From NCBI GenBank assembly GCA_001029735.1, contig CP011213.1, positions 204,087 through 268,086 of the forward strand: a stretch of DNA of 64,000 nt, read 5' to 3'. Shown here in pieces: positions 19,896 through 32,929 of this stretch. A program made the position numbers and the translations under genes. Position 1 is the first letter of the stretch, and the number at the start of each line of letters is the position of its first letter. The DNA comes from Berkelbacteria bacterium GW2011_GWE1_39_12 (lineage in GTDB: Bacteria > Patescibacteriota > UBA1384 > UBA12157). A model generated the notes under the pieces. It had not been told where the DNA came from. It saw nothing but the letters and a program-made list of their open reading frames with translations, and did no database searches.

Positions 19896-20662
19896 TTATA
19901 GAGATTGAACCACTGGTCAAGTGTTAAATCTTCTGCTCTGAGGGTCGGTTTAATTTCTGACAGCTCTAAAATTTTAATCGTTTCTTCTTTAGTCCAATGA
20001 AAGGTTGCAGAAAGCGAATTGTGAATTTGTCGACGCTTAGCAGCTAAACCAGCTTTCACGATTTTAAAGAACATCTGCTCGTCAACATTTCTTTTTTCAT
20101 TTTTTATTTTTAATTTAATAACAGAGCTATCAACGTTTGGCACCGGATAAAAATCTTTTCTCGGCACTTGCAGAACAATTTCCGCGTCAGCGTAAAACTC
20201 TACTATTATAGTCAGTAGTCCCCGCTCGGAATTGCCTGGCGCAGCACAGATTCTTTCTGCCACTTCTTTTTGAACCATCAAAACCATTGACTCTGGTTTT
20301 ATCTCGCCTTCAATAAATTTACGGATCAAAGGCGAAGTAATGTTGTAAGGAATGTTGGCGACAACTTTGAATTTACCGGTTTCAAACAAAGACAGGTCAA
20401 ACCACAAAGCGTCTTGATGAACTATTTTTAAATTTTTAGGCTCACCAATATTTCTCTTAAGAGTCGTAATTAAATCGTAATCTTTTTCCACCGCAAAGAT
20501 AGCCGCGCCAGTTTTGATCAACGCTTCGGTTAAAATGCCTGTTCCCGGACCGATTTCAATAATTTTATCGTCGGCTTTAATTTCCGCCGCTTCAATTATT
20601 TTGGTGACGACTTCGGGATTTTTTAAGAAATTCTGTCCTAATTGTTTTTTAATTTTAAACAT
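19874..20662 (-). CDS. rsmA: 16S rRNA (adenine1518/1519-N6)-dimethyltransferase
   Basis: LGQNFL and EIGPGTGILTEAL SAM-binding motifs. Confidence 0.9.
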   Translation of the reverse strand: MFKIKKQLGQNFLKNPEVVTKIIEAAEIKADDKIIEIGPGTGILTEALIKTGAAIFAVEKDYDLITTLKRNIGEPKNLKIVHQDALWFDLSLFETGKFKVVANIPYNITSPLIRKFIEGEIKPESMVLMVQKEVAERICAAPGNSERGLLTIIVEFYADAEIVLQVPRKDFYPVPNVDSSVIKLKIKNEKRNVDEQMFFKIVKAGLAAKRRQIHNSLSATFHWTKEETIKILELSEIKPTLRAEDLTLDQWFNLYNCIAKKS

Positions 20663-20706
20663 AAAATTTTGTACTCAAACTAGTTTAAACATATTATTCC
20701 GATCAA

Positions 20707-21687
20707 TTATTTATCTGCGCATCCTGCGTATGGTGGCCATCGACGTGATTGGCCATGAGTTAATTCGTAAGCCGTCGTATAAATTTGAGCAGTGGCATCA
20801 TAAATACTGGCGCCGCTATAACCGGCTTTCGCTGAAGCCGAGACCCAGTATCCTTCTTCATATTGAAACAAACCCCTGTATTGAGCATCTGGATACCCTG
20901 TATCAGCGCCGCCGCCCGACTCCTTCAACATTAAACACATGAGCGCCGTACCATTGATTAAATATTTTTTTGCTGCTGCATTAATTGTGTCTTTGTAAGG
21001 ACCAGATTTGGCCAAACGCGGCCCGATACCGATAATTTGAACTTCCGTAACCGGCTCTTGTGTCACTGTAATACTCTTTACCACTCGCGAAACTTCCTCA
21101 CCGTCAATGCGCTTTACTATATATAGTACGTCTTTCGAACCTTTAACGCCTTTTGTCTCGATTCGTGTTTGGCCTTTTTCCAAATCCACAGAATTTTTCT
21201 TTGTCACTTTATAATCAATTGATTCTTTTTCCGTTACTTCTACTTCCGCCACTCGCGTAATTGTAATATCTAAAGCATAAGATATTGGGGTTGTTTCGAT
21301 CGGCGTGATACTATCTTTACCCAGTAACTCGATTTTCTTTTCAGTTAACAGATCAGCAATATTTGTCTGCCATGTGCGATAGGTGTATGACTTTTTGGCG
21401 TCCACCACTAGAACTGGAGTCGCCCGAGTAACGGTAATTTTACTGCCAACTCCCAGTGAAGGATCGGGAAAGGCTTCAATTTTATCTTCCGGATAAACCG
21501 TTAAATCGGAAGCCGAGATCATATCTTGGAGATTCGTTAAATTGGCTCCGGCATAAAAAACCTCAACTGGATGATTTGGGTCAGCTTTAACATCATTAGT
21601 TCCGGCAACTTGTTGAAACGGATGGAAAACCATCCAGAAAACAAAAAGTATGGGTAAAATATTTACTCCCATTAAGCTTCCTTGCAA
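20707..21687 (-). CDS. secreted DUF348/G5-like protein with C-terminal SLT-type lytic transglycosylase-like domain (YabE/RpfB-like)
   Basis: Signal peptide, a G5-like segment, and C-terminal ...KESGGG...GLFQYEEGYW resembling the SLT catalytic E and GLMQ motif. Confidence 0.45.
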   Translation of the reverse strand: MQGSLMGVNILPILFVFWMVFHPFQQVAGTNDVKADPNHPVEVFYAGANLTNLQDMISASDLTVYPEDKIEAFPDPSLGVGSKITVTRATPVLVVDAKKSYTYRTWQTNIADLLTEKKIELLGKDSITPIETTPISYALDITITRVAEVEVTEKESIDYKVTKKNSVDLEKGQTRIETKGVKGSKDVLYIVKRIDGEEVSRVVKSITVTQEPVTEVQIIGIGPRLAKSGPYKDTINAAAKKYLINGTALMCLMLKESGGGADTGYPDAQYRGLFQYEEGYWVSASAKAGYSGASIYDATAQIYTTAYELTHGQSRRWPPYAGCADK

Positions 21688-21906
21688 TCAGTTTGCCAAG
21701 TATTAGTAAAGGAAAAGCTTGTTTTAAAAAGCAAATCTTGCTTAGCAAGAAAGGCTTTCATTCCTGCGGCAAGCCGACAGGATATTCAACCTCTTGAAAA
21801 TAAAGTAGCTACTTATGATTCTAACAGAATAAAGTAAAATTTCAATCGACAATCCGAGAATACAAAAAACACGGTTTCCCGTGTCTTTTGTATTGTATTT
21901 TTGATT

Positions 21907-22623
21907 TTAAAACTTAAAATCGATGATTGACCCAGGCAAACTCAAAAGTTTAACATCATAAGCTGCCCCGTATTTAGCGATTGGTTTCTGAGTATTATCA
22001 TTAAAAGCTGCGCTTACATTATAATTTCCACCGCCTGCCAAGCATGAAAATTTGTAGTACCCATTTGCATCCGGGGACATGCTAGCCACCGTGATATTAT
22101 TGGTTTTTAAGGAAATCTTTGGACTGGCGTTAAGAGTAGACTTAACCGGAGGCTTGCCGTTCACTGTCATCTGACCTTTAATATAAGGCAATGAAATAAG
22201 TTTTAAAGTTTTTATTGTTTCAGTCCTTCCGGCATTTAAAAAAACTTCAGGAGAACCAGCGCCGCCGCCTACTGCACAATCGGAAGACATATAGACCATA
22301 ACCCGATATGTTGCCGGCGTTGCCACATTACTAAATGTATAACTACCTTTTGTTTTAATATTCCCTGAGCCAGCATAACCACCGCCCACTTGTTTTTTCA
22401 ACAGAAAGACAGTGTAGTCATGCGAGAGGCCGTCATTGCTTGTTACATTTCCAGTTATCGTACCAACCCCCATCTTATTAGAAGGTCTACTGCCTCCGTC
22501 CCGATTGGCAGCAAAAGTAGACAGGGTTCCATTAAGTATAGCGTTAGTTGCAAATCCGGCACCAACGAGTATTAGTACAACGAAGATAGATAACAAGATT
22601 TTTGCTCTTTTGCTCTTGAACAT
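21907..22623 (-). CDS. secreted protein with carboxypeptidase-regulatory-like beta-sandwich repeats
   Basis: Signal peptide and Gly/Ser-rich Ig-like repeats. A minus-strand terminator follows at about 21862-21886. Confidence 0.3.
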   Translation of the reverse strand: MFKSKRAKILLSIFVVLILVGAGFATNAILNGTLSTFAANRDGGSRPSNKMGVGTITGNVTSNDGLSHDYTVFLLKKQVGGGYAGSGNIKTKGSYTFSNVATPATYRVMVYMSSDCAVGGGAGSPEVFLNAGRTETIKTLKLISLPYIKGQMTVNGKPPVKSTLNASPKISLKTNNITVASMSPDANGYYKFSCLAGGGNYNVSAAFNDNTQKPIAKYGAAYDVKLLSLPGSIIDFKF

Positions 22624-22728
22624 TTTATGCCCTCCTACTTAAATTTACTTATCTCTAGAATAACTTTTCTAACAAATTAAATCAATTTTTTTAATTCTTT
22701 CGATCAACCACTCGGGATTTCACCACAC

Positions 22729-24588
22729 TCATATTCTTTCGATAAGGTACTCTGGTATTTCGCTTAAAAATCGCGAGGGCATGTTGGCGGATGTCGTACC
22801 AAAAATCATGCGGCAACGAGCGTGAGTCATATATAATCTTTTCTGTGCGCGCGTCATGCCGACATAGCAAAGGCGGCGTTCCTCTTCGACTTCGTTTGGA
22901 TCGGCCAAGCAATTGGAATGGGGGAACAAACCTTCCTCCATTCCGACCATAAAAACAATCGGAAACTCGAGTCCTTTAGCATTATGCAAGGTCATCAGTG
23001 TCACAGCTTCAGCGTCTTTATTATAATTATCAACATCGGAAACCAGCGCTACATTTTCCAAAAATTCTTCCAAGGATTCAGACTTTTGCGCTACCGATTT
23101 TAATTCCTCAATATTTTCCCAACGGCTCTCCCCTTCTTCAGTTCCATCTAAAATATAATTTTTGTAACCTGATTCGCGAGTGACTTCATCGATTAATTCA
23201 TCAATTTTTTTTTCTTTTGCCGCATTACGGAAATTTTCCATCATTTGCATGAAGACTTTAATTTTCGGATTTTCTAAATCAAACGCAGCCGCCGTTTTTT
23301 CCCCTATCCCACGAGTTGGGGTATTAATAATGCGACGCAAAGAGACTTTGTCCGATTCGTTATGGATCACTTTTAAATAAGCCAAAATATCTTTGATTTC
23401 TCTTCGGTCATAAAAACGCAAAGCGCCAATCAAGCGATAGGGAATTCGGTTTTGTAAAAAAAACTCTTCAATAATACGTGATTGGGCATTGGTTCTATAG
23501 AGGATCGTAAAATCGTTTAGTGAATTCATGTGTGAAAAAGCCACAATTTCATTTTTCACAAATTCAATTTCGTCGAGTTCGTTGTTTGCTTCATAAACAG
23601 AGGCTGGCATCCCCTCTTCGTTTTCAGTCCAAAGTTTCTTTTCACTTCTTAAAGTGTTTCGCTCAATCACACTTTGGGCCGCTTCCAAAATATTTTTAGT
23701 CGACCGATAGTTCTGTTCCATTTTAATCACCACGGCTTCCGGATAATCTTTTTCAAAATCTAAAATATTTTTAAAATTAGCGCCTCGAAAACCATAAATC
23801 GCCTGAAAGTCGTCGCCCACCACACAAATATTTTTGTATTTTTCTGAAAGCAAATTGACCAAACGATATTGGACCGTATTAGTATCTTGATACTCATCGA
23901 TTAAAATATAACGAAATAATTCCTGATACCGTTTTAAAATTTCGGGGAACTTTGTAAATAACTCGACGGTTTTAACTAGTAAATCATCGAAATCCAAGGC
24001 ATTAGCGTTCTTCAATTCTTTTTGGTATTGGATATAGACTCGGACTACTACTTCGCCAAAATGACCCTTGGAATATTTGGCATATTCTTTAGGATTCATA
24101 AGTTCATTTTTAGCGCCGGAAATAAAATTCTTGATAGTTTTTGGACTATACTGTTTTTTATCAATATTCAATTCATCCATCGCATTTTTAATGGCCGCCA
24201 AAGATTCGTCGGAATCATAGATTACAAAGCTTCGTCTGAATTCGATATTGTGAATTTCTTGGCGCAAAATCTTGCAGCAAATGGAGTGAAACGTCCCCAT
24301 CCAAGGAAGCAATGAAACAACTTGTCTGTAGGAGTTAACCGGCGCTTTTTCCCCCAATAAATGATTGATACGTTTTTTCATCTCCTCGGAGGCTTTATTA
24401 GTAAAAGTGACCGCCAAAATATTTTGAGGATGAACATTTTTCTCACGGATTAAATAGGCGATTCGATGCGTCAAAACTTTGGTTTTACCAGAGCCCGCAC
24501 CAGCCAATATCAAAACCGGCCCTTCGGTTTGAAGCACAGCTTTTTTCTGATCGACATTGAGCCCAGTTAAAATATTTTCATTTTCCAT
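22729..24588 (-). CDS. pcrA: ATP-dependent DNA helicase PcrA/UvrD
   Basis: Walker A LAGAGSGKTKVLTHRIAYLI and UvrD helicase motifs. Confidence 0.9.
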   Translation of the reverse strand: MENENILTGLNVDQKKAVLQTEGPVLILAGAGSGKTKVLTHRIAYLIREKNVHPQNILAVTFTNKASEEMKKRINHLLGEKAPVNSYRQVVSLLPWMGTFHSICCKILRQEIHNIEFRRSFVIYDSDESLAAIKNAMDELNIDKKQYSPKTIKNFISGAKNELMNPKEYAKYSKGHFGEVVVRVYIQYQKELKNANALDFDDLLVKTVELFTKFPEILKRYQELFRYILIDEYQDTNTVQYRLVNLLSEKYKNICVVGDDFQAIYGFRGANFKNILDFEKDYPEAVVIKMEQNYRSTKNILEAAQSVIERNTLRSEKKLWTENEEGMPASVYEANNELDEIEFVKNEIVAFSHMNSLNDFTILYRTNAQSRIIEEFFLQNRIPYRLIGALRFYDRREIKDILAYLKVIHNESDKVSLRRIINTPTRGIGEKTAAAFDLENPKIKVFMQMMENFRNAAKEKKIDELIDEVTRESGYKNYILDGTEEGESRWENIEELKSVAQKSESLEEFLENVALVSDVDNYNKDAEAVTLMTLHNAKGLEFPIVFMVGMEEGLFPHSNCLADPNEVEEERRLCYVGMTRAQKRLYMTHARCRMIFGTTSANMPSRFLSEIPEYLIERI

Positions 24589-24818
24589 TGCAAAGGCATT
24601 GTATCAAAATTTGAGGAAAGGAAAAAGCTCGCTCGGCGGTCTAAAGAATGAGACTCCCCGGACTCCGCTTCGCTCCAGCCGGGTTTCTTTAGGGAGCTGC
24701 AAGCACAGCTTACAGTTTATCAAAATGCGAGCATTTTGAGCGGAAGCCATTCATCCCCGCATTCCAGCGGGCTAAAAAAACCAGACGACGCCCGCTTACA
24801 TACGGGGTTTCCTGGCTT

Positions 24819-24842
24819 TGAAAAACCCGGATTTCTCCGGGA
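24819..24842 (-). terminator. rho-independent terminator after ORF 24859-25824
   Basis: Minus strand CCCGGAGAAATCCGGG followed by TTTTTCAAAG. Confidence 0.7.
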
Positions 24843-24858
24843 TAAAATAGATTATTCC

Positions 24859-25824
24859 TTATAGATCGAGCCCGACCTGTTGGGCTCTGAATATCTGGCC
24901 TCTTAGACTTGCGAGTTCCTCATTGAGTCCAATGCTTGCTTCCTCAAGTTCGGTCCTAGCCGTCTTGATTCTTACCGGGATCGTGACGTACTCGTCCCCA
25001 CCAGCTGAGCTTATGAACGCGAGCTCAATGGCTTCAATTTGTTGTCTTCTCTCTTCGGCCCGTCGTCGATATCCTTCCACACCCTGCCTAGCCCAACCGC
25101 GTTCGCTCTCAAGTTGCTCGTTAACCGCTGGCCACTCACTCGTATCTATCCCTAACATCTTTCCAAGATGATAAAGGTTTAGAATGTTGGCAGTGCCATC
25201 ACGCTCTAGCAATCTTCGAACTACGGCAGAATTGCCGATAAAAATCGCGCATTCATTACCATCGGGTCGTCGATTATCCGTCTCGGTTCGCATCCGCTCC
25301 AGCCACGTCAGGTAATTGAATAGGTCAGTATGCGTCAGTCTGATATGTGAGTATTTCTCGACACCGTTCATCTTGACGGCAGGTCCTACCAAATTCATCA
25401 AACCGTCTGAATTGTAGAGAACCGGCTTTTCCGAAGTGATCACCGAGAGGATTGAAGGCAATGTACTTGATGCCGGATGCTCGATAAAGAGAAACTGTCC
25501 GATATGTCGGCGGATTCTCCGCAGTAAGCGCGGAATCTTGGCCATTGCCTCTTCACGTTTACCAATGAAAGTTGCAACGCAAAAGTCGATGATTGGTCCG
25601 CCCAAAGTGGCTCGGCCTTCTTTGATTTCCCGTGATAGCGTCTGCATCCGGCTGCGTATTTCAGCAAGCTCTCTCACAAGTTGCTTGCTTTCGGTCTCAG
25701 CCCCACTTAGACAATCTTCCAAAACCATAAGATCTTTACGTCTGTTTATACGCATCTTCCAACCCCCAGATTTTTCACGTTCGACAATCAATATATTATT
25801 AACATATTCTAATCTGACCGTCAA
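24859..25824 (-). CDS. hypothetical R/E-rich protein in GC-richer island
   Basis: 321 aa with no recognisable motif. Codon and GC composition is distinct from the neighbouring genes. Flanked by rho-independent terminators on both sides. Confidence 0.3.
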   Translation of the reverse strand: MTVRLEYVNNILIVEREKSGGWKMRINRRKDLMVLEDCLSGAETESKQLVRELAEIRSRMQTLSREIKEGRATLGGPIIDFCVATFIGKREEAMAKIPRLLRRIRRHIGQFLFIEHPASSTLPSILSVITSEKPVLYNSDGLMNLVGPAVKMNGVEKYSHIRLTHTDLFNYLTWLERMRTETDNRRPDGNECAIFIGNSAVVRRLLERDGTANILNLYHLGKMLGIDTSEWPAVNEQLESERGWARQGVEGYRRRAEERRQQIEAIELAFISSAGGDEYVTIPVRIKTARTELEEASIGLNEELASLRGQIFRAQQVGLDL

Positions 25825-25844
25825 TCATATAATTGAAACTTTTT

Positions 25845-25871
25845 ACAAAAAAGGCGCGCAACTGCGCGCCG
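25845..25871 (-). terminator. rho-independent terminator ending a non-coding minus-strand transcript
   Basis: Minus strand GGCGCGCAGTTGCGCGCC followed by TTTTTTG. It lies upstream of the start of 24859-25824. Confidence 0.75.
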
Positions 25872-26211
25872 CTACAACAAGAATATTATAGTAAATTAAA
25901 AGGCGCGATCGAGATGCGGTCCATTAATTTTAATTATAAACCGATCGTCGCGCCCCTATGATGTGGGCAAAGTATTTGGCTTTGTCCCTATCACAGATTT
26001 TCATCTTCAATAAGGACCACCTAACTAAACCCGTTCTCCTACTATATATAAATACGGTAAGAGGAAAAGCTCGAGGTCCCTCCTTGAACTTTTCTCCTCA
26101 CCGTCTATTCCCTTCCTTTTTTAAAGATCTATCAATTCATCAATTCCATGATTATAATTTGTGAAGCAAATTTCCGCATTGATACTTAATTTATTAAGTA
26201 TCAATTATACT
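25872..26211 (-). ncRNA. candidate approximately 340-nt non-coding transcript (or micro-ORF RNA) between the sigma-factor gene and ORF 24859-25824
   Basis: Bounded by a promoter and a strong terminator. No ORF over 25 codons on the minus strand. Internal stems such as GGCGCGA...TCGCGCC. Family not identified. Confidence 0.35.
26179..26204. promoter_or_regulatory. perfect 12-bp inverted repeat TTGATACTTAAT-tt-ATTAAGTATCAA (operator-like)
   Basis: Read directly from the sequence. Sits between the promoter and the motif element. Confidence 0.6.
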
Positions 26212-26240
26212 ATTGTACAGCATTTTGACGAGCTTGTCAA
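26212..26240 (-). promoter_or_regulatory. sigma-70-like promoter TTGACA-17 nt-TACAAT for the non-coding transcript
   Basis: Minus strand TTGACAagctcgtcaaaatgctgTACAAT. Downstream are the IR operator 26179-26204 and a CGCGGAAATTTG-type element. Confidence 0.55.
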
Positions 26241-26245
26241 GCCAC

Positions 26246-26277
26246 CTTAATAAAAATACCGCGTAAAACACGGTATT
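26246..26277 (-). terminator. rho-independent terminator of the sigma-factor gene
   Basis: Minus strand ATACCGTG-TTTTA-CGCGGTAT followed by TTTTATT, directly after the stop. Confidence 0.65.
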
Positions 26278-26279
26278 GA

Positions 26280-26960
26280 TTATGCAGCTAGCACCATTTC
26301 AGACTCGTTAGAGTCTAAGAGATGTTCAAAATTTTGACGCAGAAATTTATCACGTCTCAATTTGTCCAACATCTTGACCTCACGTTTTGAAATAGCCGCT
26401 CTGGTGATATTTTCGTGCTTGCCGATAGCCGTCTGTGTCATCGGCTCATTATCATCGAAACCAAAACGAAGATAAAGATATTCTCGTTCTTTAGACTCAA
26501 GCCTCATTAAAGCTTCAGAAATTATAGTTCGAATCACGTCATTATCTAAAACATCAAGCTCAAACGCCTCAGGTTCGATCTCAACGTCTGAGAATGGATC
26601 ATCGAGTGAAGGCAAATCCGATTCACGACAGTCGTGGGCATGGATCTTTAACTCTGCCATCATCTTCCAGGTTGCCCAAGTGGAAAATCTTAAGTTCTTA
26701 TTAAGGTCGAAGTCTTCGATCGCTTTTAGTATACCCAACCGAGCAGCCTGGCAAATATCTCCAAATGACATACCTATCCTTGGAGATCTCGCAGCAAAGT
26801 TGACTACCAAACCTTCATTGCAATCCAGAAAAATGGCTGCAGCTTCCTGATCGCCTCCCCGGATTCGGAGTATCAAATTTCTTTCCTGCTCTCGAGATAA
26901 TAACGGACGACGAGCTGACCTAATGCGGCCGATAGAAGTGAAATCGTCGTTTCGAAACAA
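26280..26960 (-). CDS. sigma-70 family alternative sigma factor (group 3/4-like), TTG start
   Basis: Region 2 (DICQAARLGILKAIEDFDLNKNLRFSTWATWKMMAEL) and region 4 (YLYLRFGFDDNEPMTQTAIGKHENITRAAISKREVKMLDKLR). RBS AGGAGGTGA lies upstream of the TTG. GC-richer than background. Confidence 0.7.
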   Translation of the reverse strand: MFRNDDFTSIGRIRSARRPLLSREQERNLILRIRGGDQEAAAIFLDCNEGLVVNFAARSPRIGMSFGDICQAARLGILKAIEDFDLNKNLRFSTWATWKMMAELKIHAHDCRESDLPSLDDPFSDVEIEPEAFELDVLDNDVIRTIISEALMRLESKEREYLYLRFGFDDNEPMTQTAIGKHENITRAAISKREVKMLDKLRRDKFLRQNFEHLLDSNESEMVLAA

Positions 26961-27058
26961 TTAACTCACCTCCTAAAAAACCAAAACTATTGTATATCAA
27001 TTAACAATTTCAATCAAGAGGACCTCGCGTTTTGCCTGATGTCGTCAGCTAGCGCAAG

Positions 27059-27220
27059 TTTATTCGCTGGACTGCAGCTTTTTGTCCAGCGTCATAAAAT
27101 TAAAAATACAATTTATGACCTTACTCCGAAGACTGAAGTTTCTTGTCCAGCGTCATAAAATAATCACTAATTCATGACCTATTCAGATGATTGAAGTTTT
27201 TTATCTAAGGTCATGAATTT
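27059..27220 (-). repeat. three tandem copies of the dnaB terminal segment FMTLDKKLQSSE-stop with only synonymous differences
   Basis: Minus-strand copies: ATGACCTTAGATAAAAAACTTCAATCATCTGAATAG (in dnaB), ATGACGCTGGACAAGAAACTTCAGTCTTCGGAGTAA, ATGACGCTGGACAAAAAGCTGCAGTCCAGCGAATAA. Period is about 58-61 nt. Confidence 0.85.
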
Positions 27221-28525
27221 CATATACTCTGGTTTCCAGAAGAGACCAATGTCGCCGGTTGGACCGTTACGATGTTTTTTAATTAAAAGTTCGGCAATAT
27301 TTTGATTTTCGGTTTCTTTATCATAGTAATCGTCGCGATATAGAAACATAACAATATCAGCATCTTGTTCAATAGAACCTGATTCACGCAAATCGGAAAG
27401 CATCGGGCGTTTGTTATCTCGGTGCTCCACTCCGCGAGAAAGTTGAGATAAAGCCATCACTGGCACATTTAATTCACGAGCTAAGGATTTTAGATTACGG
27501 GATATTTCTGAAACTTCCTGCACGCGGCTATCGGATTGTTTGGAAGTGCCTTGTAATAGCTGCAGGTAATCGATGACGATTAAGCCCAAGCCATGATCGG
27601 CTTGAAGACGGCGGCACTTGGTGCGAATTTCCATTACGTTCACAATCGGTGAATCATCGATAAAAATTGGCGCTTCGGAAAGTACTCCCATCGCGTAGTT
27701 TAATTTGCCGAAATCTTCATCGTCCAAATTGCCGGTTCTCAGTTTCCACGAATCCACTGAGCCACGGCTGCAAAGCAAACGATCAATCACCTGTTCTTTA
27801 CTCATTTCAAGGGAAAAAATTCCGACTGGCACTTTTTCGTCACAAGCCACGTGGTCAGCAATGTTTAGAGCAAACGATGATTTTCCCAAGGAAGGACGTG
27901 CGGCCAAAATAATCAAATCGGATTGCTGCAAACCAGCCGTCAAATTATCCAAATCTCGCAATCCTGTCGGAACGCCGCGTAATGTCCCTTTGTCACGATG
28001 CAGTTTATCGATACGCTCAAAACTATCGGACAAAATATCTTTGATCGATGTAAAGTATTGTTTGATATAATTTTGTGAAACGCCAAAAAGTGAACTTTCC
28101 GCTTGATCCAAAATTGATTCAATTTCCGTCGTCTCGTCGTACCCTAATTGGGCGATGGTGGTGGCGGCGGAAATTAAGCGTCGTAGTGTCGCCTTTTGCT
28201 GAATAATTTGGGCATAGGTCACAATGTTGGCTGCTGTCGGCACAGAATTCACTAGCGTCGCCAAATAAGATGCGCCGCCAATTTCTTTTAACCTTTTATC
28301 TTTCTCTAAAAGATCAGTTAAAGTAACAACATCGATCGGCTGGCGTTTTTCATAAAGTTTTAAAATCGCTCGATAAATATCGCCGTGATCGGATCGATAA
28401 AAATCGTCCGGCTTTAAAAAATCCGCAATCTTTAAGAGAGCATCTTTATCCAACAAAAGAGAACCGAGAACTGATTGCTCGGCTTCAACATTTTGGGGCG
28501 GAATTTTTGCTATATCATTTGCCAT
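27179..28525 (-). CDS. dnaB: replicative DNA helicase DnaB
   Basis: DnaB N-domain, Walker A GKSSFALN and the C-terminal RNGPTGDIGLFW region. The 3' end is followed by two further copies of the last 12 codons. Confidence 0.9.
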   Translation of the reverse strand: MANDIAKIPPQNVEAEQSVLGSLLLDKDALLKIADFLKPDDFYRSDHGDIYRAILKLYEKRQPIDVVTLTDLLEKDKRLKEIGGASYLATLVNSVPTAANIVTYAQIIQQKATLRRLISAATTIAQLGYDETTEIESILDQAESSLFGVSQNYIKQYFTSIKDILSDSFERIDKLHRDKGTLRGVPTGLRDLDNLTAGLQQSDLIILAARPSLGKSSFALNIADHVACDEKVPVGIFSLEMSKEQVIDRLLCSRGSVDSWKLRTGNLDDEDFGKLNYAMGVLSEAPIFIDDSPIVNVMEIRTKCRRLQADHGLGLIVIDYLQLLQGTSKQSDSRVQEVSEISRNLKSLARELNVPVMALSQLSRGVEHRDNKRPMLSDLRESGSIEQDADIVMFLYRDDYYDKETENQNIAELLIKKHRNGPTGDIGLFWKPEYMKFMTLDKKLQSSE

Positions 28526-28638
28526 AATTTGAGATCCTTAACTTAATCTGTGCATTACTATCATTATGCTTTTGTTCTAGTAGCGTCAAGGCTGTGGAAA
28601 GTGTGGATAGTGGGGATAAACTACGTTACAATTAAAAC

Positions 28639-29259
28639 ATGAAACAAAACAAAAAAATAATCTCAAAATGGTTTAGTTTAATCTTAATCGTCGTTGCAGC
28701 CGCCGTTCTTATCGGAATCGGTTGGCTGGCTTGGTGTCAGATAAATCCTAAAGTTGTTGAGGATATTCCCAAGGCTTCGTTTTCGACCACAACCGAACCA
28801 TCGAGCGAACCTGTAGAAAAAAACAGCAGCACACCGAGCGACACAACAACCAGTTTAAAAAATTTTAGTAAGACCGGCTTTAGCTTTAACTTTAGCTACC
28901 CAAGCAGTTGGACGGTGACCTCTTCAACCGATGAAAAAGCTACGCCGAATGCAAAATTTTCTCAAGAAACTGTCAAAATCGTTTCTCCCTCCGGCATTGA
29001 ATTTAGATTTGATAACCCAACTGTTGCCACCGGCTTTGAGGAATATTCTGCCAATCACGCCAAAGATATTTCCGCCGGCAAACTAACTTTTAAACGAAAT
29101 TGGGGCGAAAATTTAGAAGGCACTACTCTCTATATCGCCACATACAATGATCCGCAAAACATCGACGCCCTCTCTGTTAGTTTCTATGGCACAGGCAAAA
29201 TCAGCGAGGAAGAAATTAGCACCTTGGACCAGATCATTGCTTCATTTAAATTTAATTAG
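28639..29259 (+). CDS. membrane-anchored secreted protein distantly related to the WLWI-anchor family
   Basis: N-terminal anchor KKIISKWFSLILIVVAAAVLIGIGWLAW and a FSKTGFSFNFSYPSSW module. Confidence 0.35.
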   Translation: MKQNKKIISKWFSLILIVVAAAVLIGIGWLAWCQINPKVVEDIPKASFSTTTEPSSEPVEKNSSTPSDTTTSLKNFSKTGFSFNFSYPSSWTVTSSTDEKATPNAKFSQETVKIVSPSGIEFRFDNPTVATGFEEYSANHAKDISAGKLTFKRNWGENLEGTTLYIATYNDPQNIDALSVSFYGTGKISEEEISTLDQIIASFKFN

Positions 29260-29284
29260 ATCTTTCAAGTTTTTTATAGAGCTT

Positions 29285-30871
29285 TTACAATTCAAAAACT
29301 TCTTTAGCATTATTTAATATCGCCTCTTCCACTTCGACGGGTTTTTTTATTTCTAAGTTTTTATCCACAATACAGTCGACTTTATAAGGAATACCGGCAA
29401 TTTTTAACACCGCTGCTTCGATTATAACTAAGTTCTTTTTATTACAAATTTGATCGGCGTGAAATTTAAATCGAGCTGCCAAATCTATTTGATTGGAAGA
29501 AACTTTTTGGACTACCGTACCACCAAGCAAAGCGGCTAAAGTATTATTCTGAGATTTCACCTCTGTTATTACGTCCGGCCACTTGTCAAAATCGACGCTT
29601 GGCGTTGGCGCTTTTGCTCCTGTGATCGATTCATTACTTTCTTTGTTTATCACGGGATCAGAGTTAACAACAGGCGCCTTCATTTCAATAACTGGGGAAG
29701 TAATTTTTATTTCTGCTGGAATGGAAATTTCGGGTTCCGCTTTTATTTCCTGAACTACCTCTTTTTTAACGGCTATTTCTTGATTCGAAGTTAGTTCGAA
29801 TACTACCATTTCCAAAGGCAGCTGGCCTAAAATGGAAGTTTTCACTTTACCTATTATTTCGGACAGTTTTTCGATAATTAAAACGATTTTCTCAAGCGAA
29901 AGTAGATCGGCCATCTCGGCGATCTTTTTTAAATCTTCTTTCGAGGCTTCGGAATCTAAGTTAAGATCAGCTTTTTTTAGTAAAACTACTCTAAAAATAG
30001 TAATGACTTGGGTAATAAAGTTTTCCAAGTCTTTACCTTCAAAGTATATTTTTTCAACCAGCTCCATTAGGGCTAAACGATTGTTTTTCGCTAAGTTTTC
30101 ACAAAATTCCCAAGCCAAACCTTCGGCTGTTTGACCCAAAACCGCTTGCACTTCGGAAAGTGAAATTTGGTGTTTTTCGTCGATTTGCAAAGAGCCTACC
30201 TGATCTAACATACTTAATGCGTCTCGATAAGCACCAAATGAAAGTCTGGCGATTAATCCTAAAGCTTGATCTTCTATATTTAGCTTTTCAGCTTTGGCTA
30301 TTTTTTTAAGCAAACTAATAATGTCTTCTTGAGAGGCTTTTTTAAATTCAAAGCTTTGCGTTCTGGAAAGAATCGTTGGCGGCACTTTATGAATTTCAGT
30401 TGTCGCCAAAATAAAAATGGCATGTGCCGGCGGTTCTTCCAATGTTTTTAAAAGTGCATTAAACGCTTCTTTCGTAAGCATATGACATTCATCAATGATA
30501 TAGACTTTGAAGCGGCCAGCCGATGGAGCAAAATGAATTTTTTCCCTTAATTCTCTCATTTCATCGATGCCGCGGTTAGAGGCGGCATCAATTTCAATCA
30601 TATCTAAATTTGCCCCGGTCATAATTTCTTTACAGGACAAACATTTATCGCATGGCTCAAAAGATTCTTTATTCAAGACTCTACCCTGACAATTCAATGC
30701 TTTAGCTAATAATCTAGCTGAAGAAGTTTTGCCCGAACCTCTGGGTCCGGAAAAAAGATAAGCATGTGAAAAAGAGCCACTACTTAATGCATTGATTAAA
30801 GTGGTGCGAATATGATCTTGACCGATTAAATCAATGAATTTTTGAGGGCGGTATTTTCTATAGAACGACAT
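29285..30871 (-). CDS. dnaX: DNA polymerase III subunit gamma/tau
   Basis: YRKYRPQKF..., Walker A GPRGSGKTSSARLLAKALNC, zinc-finger cysteines. Confidence 0.85.
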   Translation of the reverse strand: MSFYRKYRPQKFIDLIGQDHIRTTLINALSSGSFSHAYLFSGPRGSGKTSSARLLAKALNCQGRVLNKESFEPCDKCLSCKEIMTGANLDMIEIDAASNRGIDEMRELREKIHFAPSAGRFKVYIIDECHMLTKEAFNALLKTLEEPPAHAIFILATTEIHKVPPTILSRTQSFEFKKASQEDIISLLKKIAKAEKLNIEDQALGLIARLSFGAYRDALSMLDQVGSLQIDEKHQISLSEVQAVLGQTAEGLAWEFCENLAKNNRLALMELVEKIYFEGKDLENFITQVITIFRVVLLKKADLNLDSEASKEDLKKIAEMADLLSLEKIVLIIEKLSEIIGKVKTSILGQLPLEMVVFELTSNQEIAVKKEVVQEIKAEPEISIPAEIKITSPVIEMKAPVVNSDPVINKESNESITGAKAPTPSVDFDKWPDVITEVKSQNNTLAALLGGTVVQKVSSNQIDLAARFKFHADQICNKKNLVIIEAAVLKIAGIPYKVDCIVDKNLEIKKPVEVEEAILNNAKEVFEL

Positions 30872-31021
30872 AATTTTTCCTAAAATTAAAGCTACTCACA
30901 ACCTGACTATAGAGACAATTTTCGCAAAAGACAAGGCGGAAATTAGTCGTTAAAAGATAATGGATCACACTATCAGTTTTTGACATTTTTGTGATATGAT
31001 TAGCTTAAGAAGCGGAGGGGC

Positions 31022-32929
31022 ATGACTTCGAGCGAACTAATCAAACAAATTAAAGTTTCGACAGGTTTGAGTGCGGAAAAAATTAAAAGTGCACTCAATA
31101 ATTTTCAAAACATTATAGCCGAAGAACTAAACGCCGGACGGGAAGTTCAAATGCCAGGTTTTGGCAATTTTGTGATAGTGAGCTATCCTTCACGGACGGT
31201 TTTAAATCCCCGAGATCCAAAACAAAAAATTGTTACCATTGGCTCAAATGTACCAAAGTTCAGACCTCACCCAGATCTAACAAACGCAATTAAAAATAAA
31301 AATTACTTGCCTTCCGATATAAACTCTCAAACTGACATTCCACAAACTACACAGGCTAATCAGGACCAAGGCATACCCATTGCTTACGAGGATTTGTCCG
31401 GGCTAACTATCCCGAAGAAAATTCTAGCGCTCGTGCCGGAACACGTGGCGAGGCATTTCCAAGCAGTTCCAATTGGCGAAAAAAATGGCCGAATTACTCT
31501 TGCCATGATTGATCCTGAAGATCGTGAAGCCCTGGAATTTATCAAAAAGAAAACCGGTCAAGAACTTGATCTCAAAATTTGTACCAAAGCTGATATCAAC
31601 CATATTTTAGACCAGTACTCCGGCATCAGCGGTGAGCTTAAAAAAATTGTCGACGAAGTCGGTTCAGATGAAATTGACGGCGAAAAAAAATCTGACAATT
31701 CAGAAAAACCAAAAGTTGAGTCTGTCTCAACTGAAGAAATAACCGAAACCGCTCCGGCAGCAAAAATCGCCCAATCAATAATCAGAAGAGCCGTAAGAGA
31801 AAAAGCCTCAGATATACATATCGAACCAACCGAAGAAGAAGTAATTGTCCGTTTTCGCGTTGATGGCATTTTAAGAAAAATTATTTCTTTACCGGTAGAA
31901 ATTTTACCGGCTTTGGTTTCACGTATAAAAATTTTGGCCAATATGAAAATTGACGAAACCAGGCTGCCGCAAGATGGCCGTTTCCAAGAAATATTAGATC
32001 AAAATGAAGTCGACTTTCGTGTCTCAACTTTTCCCACAGTTAATGGTGAAAAAGTGGTGGCTCGTATTTTGGACAAATCTTCCGGCATTATTTCACTCGA
32101 ACAGCTTGGCTTTCGCGGTAGCGCCTATAAGATTTTAGAAGACAACATCACTAAAGCTCATGGTATGATTTTATCGACTGGGCCGACTGGTTCAGGAAAA
32201 ACCACGACGCTTTACGCCATATTGCAGAAATTAATGAATGAAAAAGTAAATATTGTGACGTTGGAAGATCCGGTTGAATACAAAATGCCGACTATCAATC
32301 AAGGACAAATTCAATCAAATATAGGCTTCTCTTTCGCCTCTGGTTTGCGTTCAATTTTGCGCCAAGATCCCGACGTTATCATGGTTGGTGAAATTCGTGA
32401 TTACGAAACAGCCGACATGGCCATCCACTCGGCACTCACCGGTCATATCGTGCTTTCAACGCTCCATACTAACGACGCTGCTGGCGCAATCCCCCGCTTT
32501 GTCGATATGAAAATTGAACCATTTTTGATTAACTCATCGTTAAATGTTGTAGTCGCCCAAAGACTTTGCCGCAAAATTTGTCAATTTTGCCGAGAACCAA
32601 TTGAAATTGACGCAGCTAATATGGATGTGACAAAAAAAGAAATTGAAAATCTACCCCAAGCCGAAGAAAAACCGAGTAAATTGCAGTTTTATCACGGGAA
32701 AGGTTGTGGCAATTGTGGCCAGACAGGATACAAAGGCCGAATCGGGATTTTCGAAGTTTTTGAATTGGCGGAAAATGTTAAAGAACTCGTCGCTAAAAAA
32801 TCTTCTGGTTCAGATATTAACAATATGGCAATTAAAAACGGCATGGTAAGTTTACGCCAAGATGGCATATTAAAAGCAATCGACGGCTTGACCACTTTAG
32901 AAGAAGTATGGCGCGTCACAAAGGACTAA
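31022..32929 (+). CDS. pilB: type IV pilus assembly ATPase PilB/GspE with N-terminal HU/IHF-like DNA-binding domain fusion
   Basis: Residues 1-90 align with bacterial HU (ELI..GLS...FGNF.....R..NP.....I.I....VP.F.P). Then a GspE N-domain, Walker A GPTGSGKTTTLYA and the tetracysteine CxxC...CxxC. Confidence 0.85.
   Translation: MTSSELIKQIKVSTGLSAEKIKSALNNFQNIIAEELNAGREVQMPGFGNFVIVSYPSRTVLNPRDPKQKIVTIGSNVPKFRPHPDLTNAIKNKNYLPSDINSQTDIPQTTQANQDQGIPIAYEDLSGLTIPKKILALVPEHVARHFQAVPIGEKNGRITLAMIDPEDREALEFIKKKTGQELDLKICTKADINHILDQYSGISGELKKIVDEVGSDEIDGEKKSDNSEKPKVESVSTEEITETAPAAKIAQSIIRRAVREKASDIHIEPTEEEVIVRFRVDGILRKIISLPVEILPALVSRIKILANMKIDETRLPQDGRFQEILDQNEVDFRVSTFPTVNGEKVVARILDKSSGIISLEQLGFRGSAYKILEDNITKAHGMILSTGPTGSGKTTTLYAILQKLMNEKVNIVTLEDPVEYKMPTINQGQIQSNIGFSFASGLRSILRQDPDVIMVGEIRDYETADMAIHSALTGHIVLSTLHTNDAAGAIPRFVDMKIEPFLINSSLNVVVAQRLCRKICQFCREPIEIDAANMDVTKKEIENLPQAEEKPSKLQFYHGKGCGNCGQTGYKGRIGIFEVFELAENVKELVAKKSSGSDINNMAIKNGMVSLRQDGILKAIDGLTTLEEVWRVTKD

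Follow-up and report, generated by a model that had tools for sequence, protein, structure and literature searches.

Synonymously recoded gene ends stacked behind dnaB with hairpin joints in Berkelbacteria

In the 64-kb stretch of Berkelbacteria DNA analysed here (the window), the replicative helicase gene dnaB is followed by two further copies of its own last codons, which encode the same peptide in largely different codons and are set apart by short hairpin-forming joints. We conclude that the copies are alternative dnaB ends stacked at one fixed boundary, that they have been shaped by selection on the peptide, that the joint is a specific and conserved part of the arrangement, and that the arrangement extends across the clade, is dynamic, and does not represent the scar of an identifiable mobile element. 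As to what the stack represents, the reading we prefer, at a probability of about 0.45, is that it holds the current and former dnaB termini: only the first unit would function, and the two behind it would be former ends that persist as untranslated relics. Literature searches did not find this dnaB gene-end arrangement described.

The array in the window

The window DnaB matches at 100% identity a Candidatus Berkelbacteria protein named as replicative DNA helicase, and the nearest genome loci to its gene in a genome scan belong to Berkelbacteria or Patescibacteria. The features of the locus are as follows.

27179..28525, minus strand: dnaB, replicative DNA helicase of 448 aa (Pfam DnaB_C, 1e-111; DnaB N-terminal domain, 5e-38)
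27218..27241, minus strand: last conserved DNA block of dnaB, TGGAAACCAGAGTATATGAAA, encoding WKPEYMK (clade-wide pattern TGGAARCCNGARTAYATGAARTTY)
27179..27217, minus strand: unit A, the working dnaB end, F MTLDKKLQSSE stop
27160..27178, minus strand: joint A, an inverted copy of the start of unit A, then the filler AGTGATTAT
27121..27159, minus strand: unit B, a displaced end with the same peptide as A
27099..27120, minus strand: joint B, right arm GGTCATAAATT, then the filler GTATTTTTAAT
27060..27098, minus strand: unit C, the terminal displaced end, with the same peptide as A and no joint after it
26280..26960 (to 27017 with its promoter), minus strand: sigma-70-family gene, 226 aa, with a strong ribosome-binding site, outside the array

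The repeated unit is 39 nt long (F+MTLDKKLQSSE+stop), with 19 nt between A and B and 22 nt between B and C. It reads TTC ATG ACC TTA GAT AAA AAA CTT CAA TCA TCT GAA TAG in A, TTT ATG ACG CTG GAC AAG AAA CTT CAG TCT TCG GAG TAA in B and TTT ATG ACG CTG GAC AAA AAG CTG CAG TCC AGC GAA TAA in C, the Phe codons thus being TTC, TTT and TTT. Over the last 36 nt there are 10 differences between A and B and 8 between B and C, as an earlier note on this DNA had counted; with the Phe codon included, the figures are 11 (A/B), 13 (A/C) and 8 (B/C). All are synonymous or exchange one stop codon for another, and the codon switches listed in that note are correct. A degenerate back-translation search with the tail peptide bears out its three copies, matching only 27179–27214, 27121–27156 and 27060–27095 and nothing elsewhere in the 64 kb, with 0 matches expected (100 shuffles). 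Only 18–20% of single substitutions in a unit preserve the peptide; when random substitutions were simulated, it was retained in 0 of 300,000 trials with 11 changes and in about 7e-6 of trials with 8. Search and simulation together rule out a chance origin of the window copies (below 1e-5).

The likeness resides in the peptide rather than the DNA, as had been claimed: the tail peptides are identical, and Tandem Repeats Finder reports no array in the window because the copies are alike as protein, not as DNA (67–79% identity among the 39-nt units). A simple recent tandem duplication is rejected on this lack of DNA-level likeness. Neutral decay of an in-place duplication is rejected because none of the 8–13 differences per pair in the window is non-synonymous, and also because identical 39-nt repeats would collapse before diverging. 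Nor is the array an assembly artefact, since it is identical in five independent metagenome assemblies from different samples (L081–L085). Within the window, unit A favours AT-ending codons and units B and C GC-ending ones (GC3 0.25, 0.67 and 0.75, respectively; dnaB 0.40). A codon-usage bias of displaced against active units was considered and rejected (GC3 0.46 vs 0.41, no overall bias). The “GC-rich island” reported downstream does have a higher GC content, though only modestly so (43–46% vs about 39%).

Each joint repeats, in inverted orientation, the first codons of the unit it follows and the AA of the Lys codon ahead of that unit, and then continues with 9–11 nt of filler. Joint A gives a perfect 12-bp inverted repeat (27169–27180 vs 27208–27219) whose right arm overlaps the stop codon, and the corresponding RNA hairpin of unit A has 12+5 bp at −16.9 kcal/mol (z = −4.6). 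The arm of joint B is the perfect 10-nt complement of AATTTATGAC, i.e., of the start of unit B as it would read directly behind the dnaB Lys codon. Of the inverted repeat said to bracket every copy, that around unit A (AATTCATGACCT / AGGTCATGAATT, 12/12, 27 nt apart) and that around unit B (8–10 bp) are present, and that around unit C is not; unit C does carry the internal hairpin described earlier, CGCTGGAC-N11-GTCCAGCG (arms 27065–27072 and 27084–27091), in which its Ser codons (TCC AGC G) pair with its own Thr-Leu-Asp codons (CG CTG GA).

Arrays, joints and codons among relatives

We gathered dnaB 3′ ends by genome scan, by metagenome scan (with a DNA pattern for WKPEYMKF) and by closest-DnaB look-ups; the pattern TGGAARCCNGARTAYATGAARTTY of the conserved block pulled out the entire clade. 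Two or three units occur in 13 of 30 distinct Berkelbacteria-type dnaB loci—three in the window, L064 and L087, and two in L010, L054, L056, L057, L069, L071, L074, L077, L080 and L086. The truncated start of a further unit is present in four or five loci (L051, L075, L069 and L077; L062 probable), and about half of the lineages have one unit only. No tail arrays occur at the Clostridia and other DnaB loci fetched alongside (among L009–L044), and against the 13 arrays at dnaB, all other genes sampled gave one decayed case.

The boundary is fixed. Units begin at the Phe codon directly 3′ of the WKPEYMK block in every case, with boundary sequences A|TTYGGN, A|TTYATG or A|TTYACC, and dnaB homology between genomes stops within a few bases of the end of the block. 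From there, terminus modules (tail, stop codon and joint) of 46–93 nt are stacked head to tail, with gaps of 7–52 nt between units across all 13 arrays, and where loci differ by a module, they do so by a clean block with the 8–9 nt direct repeat TTYGGNAC at its flanks. Length differences between units are all in frame (L010, L054), and no intact dnaB unit is frameshifted. Residues specific to a lineage recur in all units of its array in differing codons (N-I-E-T in L010, EEYQ in L087). In L087, the second triple, all three peptides are the same (FGNLEKKREEYQ); there are 3 nt differences between units 1 and 3, and unit 2 differs from each at 8–9 of 12 codons. Two other arrays have units that encode quite different tails, with 4/11 (L074) and 5/10 (L056) residues identical.

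The joint follows a simple rule, being found behind every unit that precedes another unit or a remnant and absent behind terminal units. Specifically, 15/16 loci with an array or remnant, vs 0/14 single-unit loci, have an inverted repeat of 7 bp or more behind the first unit. The inverted copy is 7–12 bp long and mostly perfect, and begins 0–35 nt past the stop codon or overlaps it. Its sequence differs between genomes (ATGACC / GGTCAT in the window, ACCACG / CGTGGT in L075, GGAAA / TTTCC in L010 and GGCACC / GGTGCC in L069). Across 15 genomes, 82% of cells are paired, with changes on both sides in 7/12 pairs (27 cells), and the covariation score is 0.394 vs 0.139 in shuffles (0/500 reach it; slid registers all score far lower), figures to be read with the caveat that right arms were located by their complementarity. 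With that same caveat on how the right arms were found, compensatory changes keep the arms paired across genomes, as in a conserved hairpin; in the front hairpin such changes already separate the window from L075, its 92% relative. Behind displaced units, the right arms match the front-of-array context (10/10 for window unit B), and this fit worsens with position (L064 unit 3).

Fillers fall into recurrent types: AGTGATTAT in the window, L080 and L087 (the joint A filler GAAT(T)AGTGATTA being shared with the latter two), AGTCATCAG in L010, L064, L069 and L071, GTAnTCTTAAT in window joint B, L075 and L077 (whose fillers, GTAGTCTTAAT and GTACTCTTAAT, the joint B filler resembles), and two more, TGnnnnTCTT and CGCnTnCAn. 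They are far better conserved than synonymous sites—L010, L064 and L069 share an identical filler-region 20-mer though their dnaB genes are only 78–81% identical—and this conservation suggests a function for the joint. Types of joint mostly follow clades, and the joint motif was found only at dnaB in about 800 kb of DNA examined.

Units within an array are alike as peptides and unlike as codons. Adjacent units of one array differ at 20% of residues vs 51% for units of different genomes; at positions with the same residue, codons differ in 69% of adjacent comparisons vs 57% between genomes (saturation). Twofold-degenerate codons differ in 60/87 cases between adjacent units vs 49% between genomes (binomial p = 2.6e-4), and among pairs with at most two residue differences the codons differ in 73% (adjacent) vs 55% (between genomes; Fisher p = 3e-4), the unit pairs in these statistics not being fully independent. 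The between-genome figure of 55% comes from 38 such pairs, e.g., the first units of L064 and L069, which encode identical peptides with 8/12 codons different. Within arrays, 8–9 of the 11–12 comparable codons differ between window A and B and in both L087 neighbour pairs, and 6/11 between window B and C.

Several observations concern the surroundings of dnaB. The sigma-70-family gene, preceded by a promoter-like site (TTGATT-17-TACAAT, 26989–27017, minus strand), is the first gene of a variable interval between dnaB and pcrA. The segment 24589–27059, with this gene, a non-coding unit and a 321-aa ORF (24859–25824), is present in the window only when compared with L075, L076 and L079; pcrA follows dnaB after 74 nt in L075, and its GTG start overlaps the dnaB stop codon in L076 (an 88% relative). 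The interval holds an HD protein in L001, L010, L056 and L071 and other genes elsewhere. The non-coding unit (25853–26240, minus strand) runs from promoter (TTGACA-17-TACAAT, 26212–26240) to terminator (25853–25870), some 340 nt in which neither an ORF nor an Rfam match is found. Its 3′ half (GTGRTAGGGACAAAGCCAATTACTTTGCCC...GGCGCGAC...TCGCGCCTTTT) is conserved beside dnaB in L047, L048, L054, L065, L068, L071, L074, L079 and L010, with two helices that show some compensatory changes (8/28 pairs), and it is probably an undescribed non-coding RNA or leader. Just downstream of its promoter lies a perfect 13-nt palindrome (ATTGATACTTAAT / ATTAAGTATCAAT, 2 nt apart; 26178–26205).

Behind pcrA (22729–24588), whose active end is EIPEYLIERI-stop, there is a relic of the last codons, 7 nt past the stop codon (22693–22761, minus strand). 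Its sequence, GAA ATC CC- GAG TGG TTG ATC GAA AGA ATT, has lost 1 nt, replaces Y by W at one position and departs from the active end in three further codons by synonymous changes; pcrA of L076, L079 and L054 shows no such relic, and a 238-aa ORF after pcrA is found only in the window. Downstream of the arrays of L064 (4846–4980) and L069 (4198–4334), a 137-nt stretch is 97.8% identical, with dnaB only 81% identical, and could represent a conserved RNA gene or else DNA that was exchanged recently. Longer DnaB proteins occur in L001 and L002 (868–872 aa) and in L080 (618 aa, with an Intein_splicing hit), and pcrA of L077 has an intein hit; intein presence does not track tail arrays. Two related metagenome contigs (L049, L050) have a perfect DnaA-box (TTATCCACA) 3 nt past the dnaB stop codon. 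At 31022–32929 (plus strand) the window encodes a type IV pilus / T2SS ATPase (T2SSE, 1.7e-129) with an N-terminal HU-type domain (PF00216, 3.9e-17) followed by MshEN, an unusual HU-MshEN-T2SSE fusion whose architecture recurs in L076, L079 and L086.

Readings of the stack

If the stack is one of current and former termini, units B and C would earlier have served as the real dnaB end, in this lineage or in close relatives, and each unit would have accumulated its differences, all synonymous, at a time when it was expressed as the end of this essential gene. Modules would be gained or lost as blocks of 46–93 nt at the last conserved block, with relics truncated by deletion. Relatives might supply a new front unit through short-homology exchange spanning the conserved block to the joint; or else the arrays may be ancient, with front modules repeatedly lost. 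The low DNA identity of neighbours would arise if arrays with similar neighbours collapse by slippage or recombine into replacement, such that codon over-dispersion would be a survivorship filter, and hairpin arms could stay complementary through selection or hairpin-templated correction.

Sister comparisons bear directly on this. In three of them the sister's working tail has its match in the second unit and not in the first, and in two of these the flank below agrees too. Unit 2 of L069 is identical to unit 1 of L064 at 33/36 nt, whereas unit 1 of L069 differs from it at 8/12 codons, and unit order looks cyclically permuted between these two loci. Unit 2 of L054 is nearer to the sole unit of L048 than is unit 1 of L054, with homologous flank and promoters below both. 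L074 and L079 differ by a clean 57-nt block flanked by TTTGGGACR; the unit 2 peptide of L074 is the working tail of L067, and its first unit encodes a quite different tail. These matches may equally reflect the gain of a new front module or the loss of the sister's front module by short-repeat slippage. No recombination tract was found in dnaB beside the new unit (L074/L079 and window/L075), identity being uniform.

We count in favour of the preferred reading this sister polarity, together with the joint rule, the arm covariation and the recurrence in relatives. The fit of right arms to the front context has the signature of a relic, and suitable donors exist, since peptide-identical tails with 8/12 codons different occur between genomes. 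The units have no consistent frame, start codon or ribosome-binding site, which argues against translation, and the frameshifted pcrA relic in the window indicates that relics do decay. On the other side, no recombinase lies nearby, there is no cargo, and we found no mechanism for front addition. Front-module loss explains the polarity equally well and implies old arrays whose relics stayed intact for long. Two triples combine perfect peptides with many codon differences, adjacent units are over-dispersed in codons, and lengths differ only in frame. The fillers are conserved, and the near-confinement to dnaB is not what a generic recombination accident would predict. Were B and C indeed relics, the locus would keep a record of how frequently uncultured relatives exchange the end of an essential replication gene, and would serve as a natural recombination marker in candidate-phyla bacteria.

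The weak points of the preferred reading (the adding step, the dnaB specificity, the filler and the two triples) keep alive a second reading, unlikely in our judgment yet the strongest of the alternatives, in which spare ends are kept in place by selection. In one version, the hairpin and the TTYGGNAC repeats would cause frequent slippage loss of the front module, fusing dnaB in frame to the next unit; a broken spare end would then cost fitness in proportion to the deletion rate, and selection against collapse would diversify the codons of neighbours. In another, the units would be translated—by reinitiation after the dnaB stop codon, or by recoding—into tail-mimic peptides or alternative DnaB ends. 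Such maintenance would account for units alike as peptides (20% vs 51%) while over-dispersed as DNA, for the three identical peptides in the window and again in L087, for lineage residues (L010 N-I-E-T, L087 EEYQ) shared by all units in different codons, for the in-frame length differences (L010, L054), and for conserved fillers and perfect front hairpins with compensatory changes even between the window and L075. Clade-specific joint types, moreover, suggest old, vertically inherited arrays. Yet the units are dispensable, as about half of the lineages have a single unit and several carry truncated remnants, and the units of L074 and L056 encode the divergent tails described above.

Translation in particular meets several obstacles. 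The earlier note had proposed that the copies are independent mini-ORFs, and as a general explanation this finds no support, there being no consistent start, frame or Shine-Dalgarno sequence across arrays. Window units B and C begin with ATG, with no Shine-Dalgarno sequence upstream, whereas genuine neighbouring genes have AGGAGG, and the Phe codon of B has an in-frame TGA 5 codons ahead of it. In relatives, units are offset by 0, 1 or 2 in frame; several have no canonical start codon, four offer ATT as sole possible start, and L087 unit 3, with an in-frame TAG directly before it, cannot be initiated. In favour of translation, L056, L057 and L087 have an ATG or TTG within the right arm, spaced alike from unit 2, which is suggestive but follows from the common ancestry of the joint. 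A +1 frameshift rescue at the A-run was considered and rejected: the gap is 1 mod 3 in 10/13 cases, but many of these are related by descent, and in the window, L077 and L080 the +1 frame is not open.

Tentatively, the stack behind this essential gene, with its recoded spare 3′ ends and hairpin joints, might be a selected device, held as peptide and driven apart in codons against collapse of the stack (or else expressed as tail-mimic peptides). In such a device, the hairpin and short repeats would allow in-frame loss or exchange of the front end. If selection does keep the ends, this would be a new way to buffer or switch the end of an essential gene, and, if the device is real, a new gene-end cassette system with concerted evolution at the protein level and repulsion at the DNA level. 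Annotators, for their part, should not by default take hairpin-flanked pseudo-ends behind dnaB for small genes.

Integration scars of the attL/attR type, also put forward in the earlier note, fit poorly, and we regard them as improbable. Elements carrying their own dnaB end would have integrated site-specifically at the dnaB 3′ end, their bodies later being deleted. Part of that proposal stands, in that the downstream copies do behave as displaced gene ends (sister matches, truncated remnants), and the highly variable dnaB–pcrA interval (sigma factor, HD protein, non-coding unit or nothing), the single codon position at which all units begin, and the known replacement of gene 3′ ends by element-borne copies with mostly synonymous differences would all suit it. 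The integrase-borne islands do not: none are present at dnaB 3′ ends among the called genes of eleven related loci, and the roughly 12 kb on either side of the window array contain no integrase, transposase, reverse transcriptase or tRNA. Pfam scans of 40 ORFs covering 146–39507 gave no recombinase or RT domain, and no recombinase is found in the called genes of L075–L080, L086 and L087 or in the gene lists of the P0003, P0040 and P0048 contigs. Units are 7–52 nt apart in 13/13 arrays (19 and 22 nt in the window) with no cargo or element DNA between them, and their joints are homologous, not random deletion ends. There is no unit-like repeat at the far end of the interval (24400–27040), and a site-specific recombinase leaves a single site behind when it excises an element, not several. 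None of the viral contigs searched carries the motif, on which ground a phage-borne dnaB was also rejected as donor, and anti-phage models gave nothing beyond generic sigma-factor homology.

A purely structural array, i.e., hairpins of the dnaB transcript or DNA (terminator, 3′-end protection or protein-binding) multiplied by local duplication, with the coding likeness a leftover, fits poorly too and is very improbable: the 193-nt array region folds well (−50.9 kcal/mol, z = −3.9, no shuffle equally good), units A and C form strong hairpins, C through its codon choice, and arms covary, but structure alone cannot confine changes to synonymous sites (Ser TCT to AGC, Leu TTA to CTG), the fold of unit B on its own does not surpass that of shuffles (z = −0.8), the unit hairpins have loops of 11–32 nt, no U-tract terminator is called at 27040–27220 (in a scan of 25500–27500, terminators were called only after the sigma gene and after the non-coding unit), and Rfam 15 has no match in window 20000–32000 or in L064, L069, L071, L074 and L079, beyond chance-level hits elsewhere. 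A hammerhead or other ribozyme in the antisense-joint CTGATGA was also rejected, as the core does not fit and Rfam is silent.

Comparison with known systems

Front stacking, the A|T boundary and a hairpin 9–11 nt from the unit end led us to weigh integron, IS200/IS605, Helitron-like and MITE readings, all of which we rejected, with no enzyme present, arms that vary per genome and a motif that is not dispersed. As in integron arrays, dnaB units seem to stack from a fixed point beside a resident gene, and each has a hairpin-forming imperfect inverted repeat whose structure is conserved and whose sequence is not. Unlike in integrons, there is no IntI-type recombinase, attI or R″/R′ core (GTTRRRY), and units are geneless and all encode one gene end; of the defining features (IntI, attI, attC RYYYAAC / GTTRRRY) none was found, and the boundaries A|TTYGGN, A|TTYATG and A|TTYACC do not fit GTTRRRY. 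REP/BIME sequences, MITEs and Rickettsia palindromic elements are dispersed families conserved as DNA, those of Rickettsia being compatible with coding sequence. They share with the dnaB arrays short hairpin-forming units at gene 3′ ends, but the latter are confined to dnaB in about 800 kb, their arms vary per genome and their loop encodes the host tail.

Diversity-generating retroelements, common in candidate-phyla bacteria, likewise place a near-copy of a gene's last codons close by, with a hairpin after the repeat. Here, however, adenine stands at just 5/10 of the A/B differences (copy A has C, T, A, T, A, A, A, T, A and G), and the copies encode the same peptide, not variants; with mismatches not specific to adenine and no reverse transcriptase nearby, we rejected such an element. 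Quasi-palindrome template-switch mutagenesis could keep hairpin arms complementary and could spread a GGN to ATG change across all arms of an array without selection. It would cover the arms alone, not the recoded loops or the origin of the units.

Closest, along with integron-like stacking, are the displaced gene ends familiar as integration footprints. When e14 or phage 21 integrates in icd of E. coli, the 3′ end of the gene is replaced by an element-borne copy with mostly synonymous differences, and the two copies flank a kilobase-scale element with an integrase. The dnaB arrays resemble such ends in having partial downstream copies of the last codons and a gene-fused copy that keeps the protein intact. 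They differ in having units 7–52 nt apart, up to three of them, with hairpin joints and with no element or integrase. What is otherwise a footprint of integration is here recurrent, element-less and found at one essential gene in about half of a clade; its hairpin joint is stereotyped, and adjacent copies resemble each other as protein yet are actively unlike as DNA.
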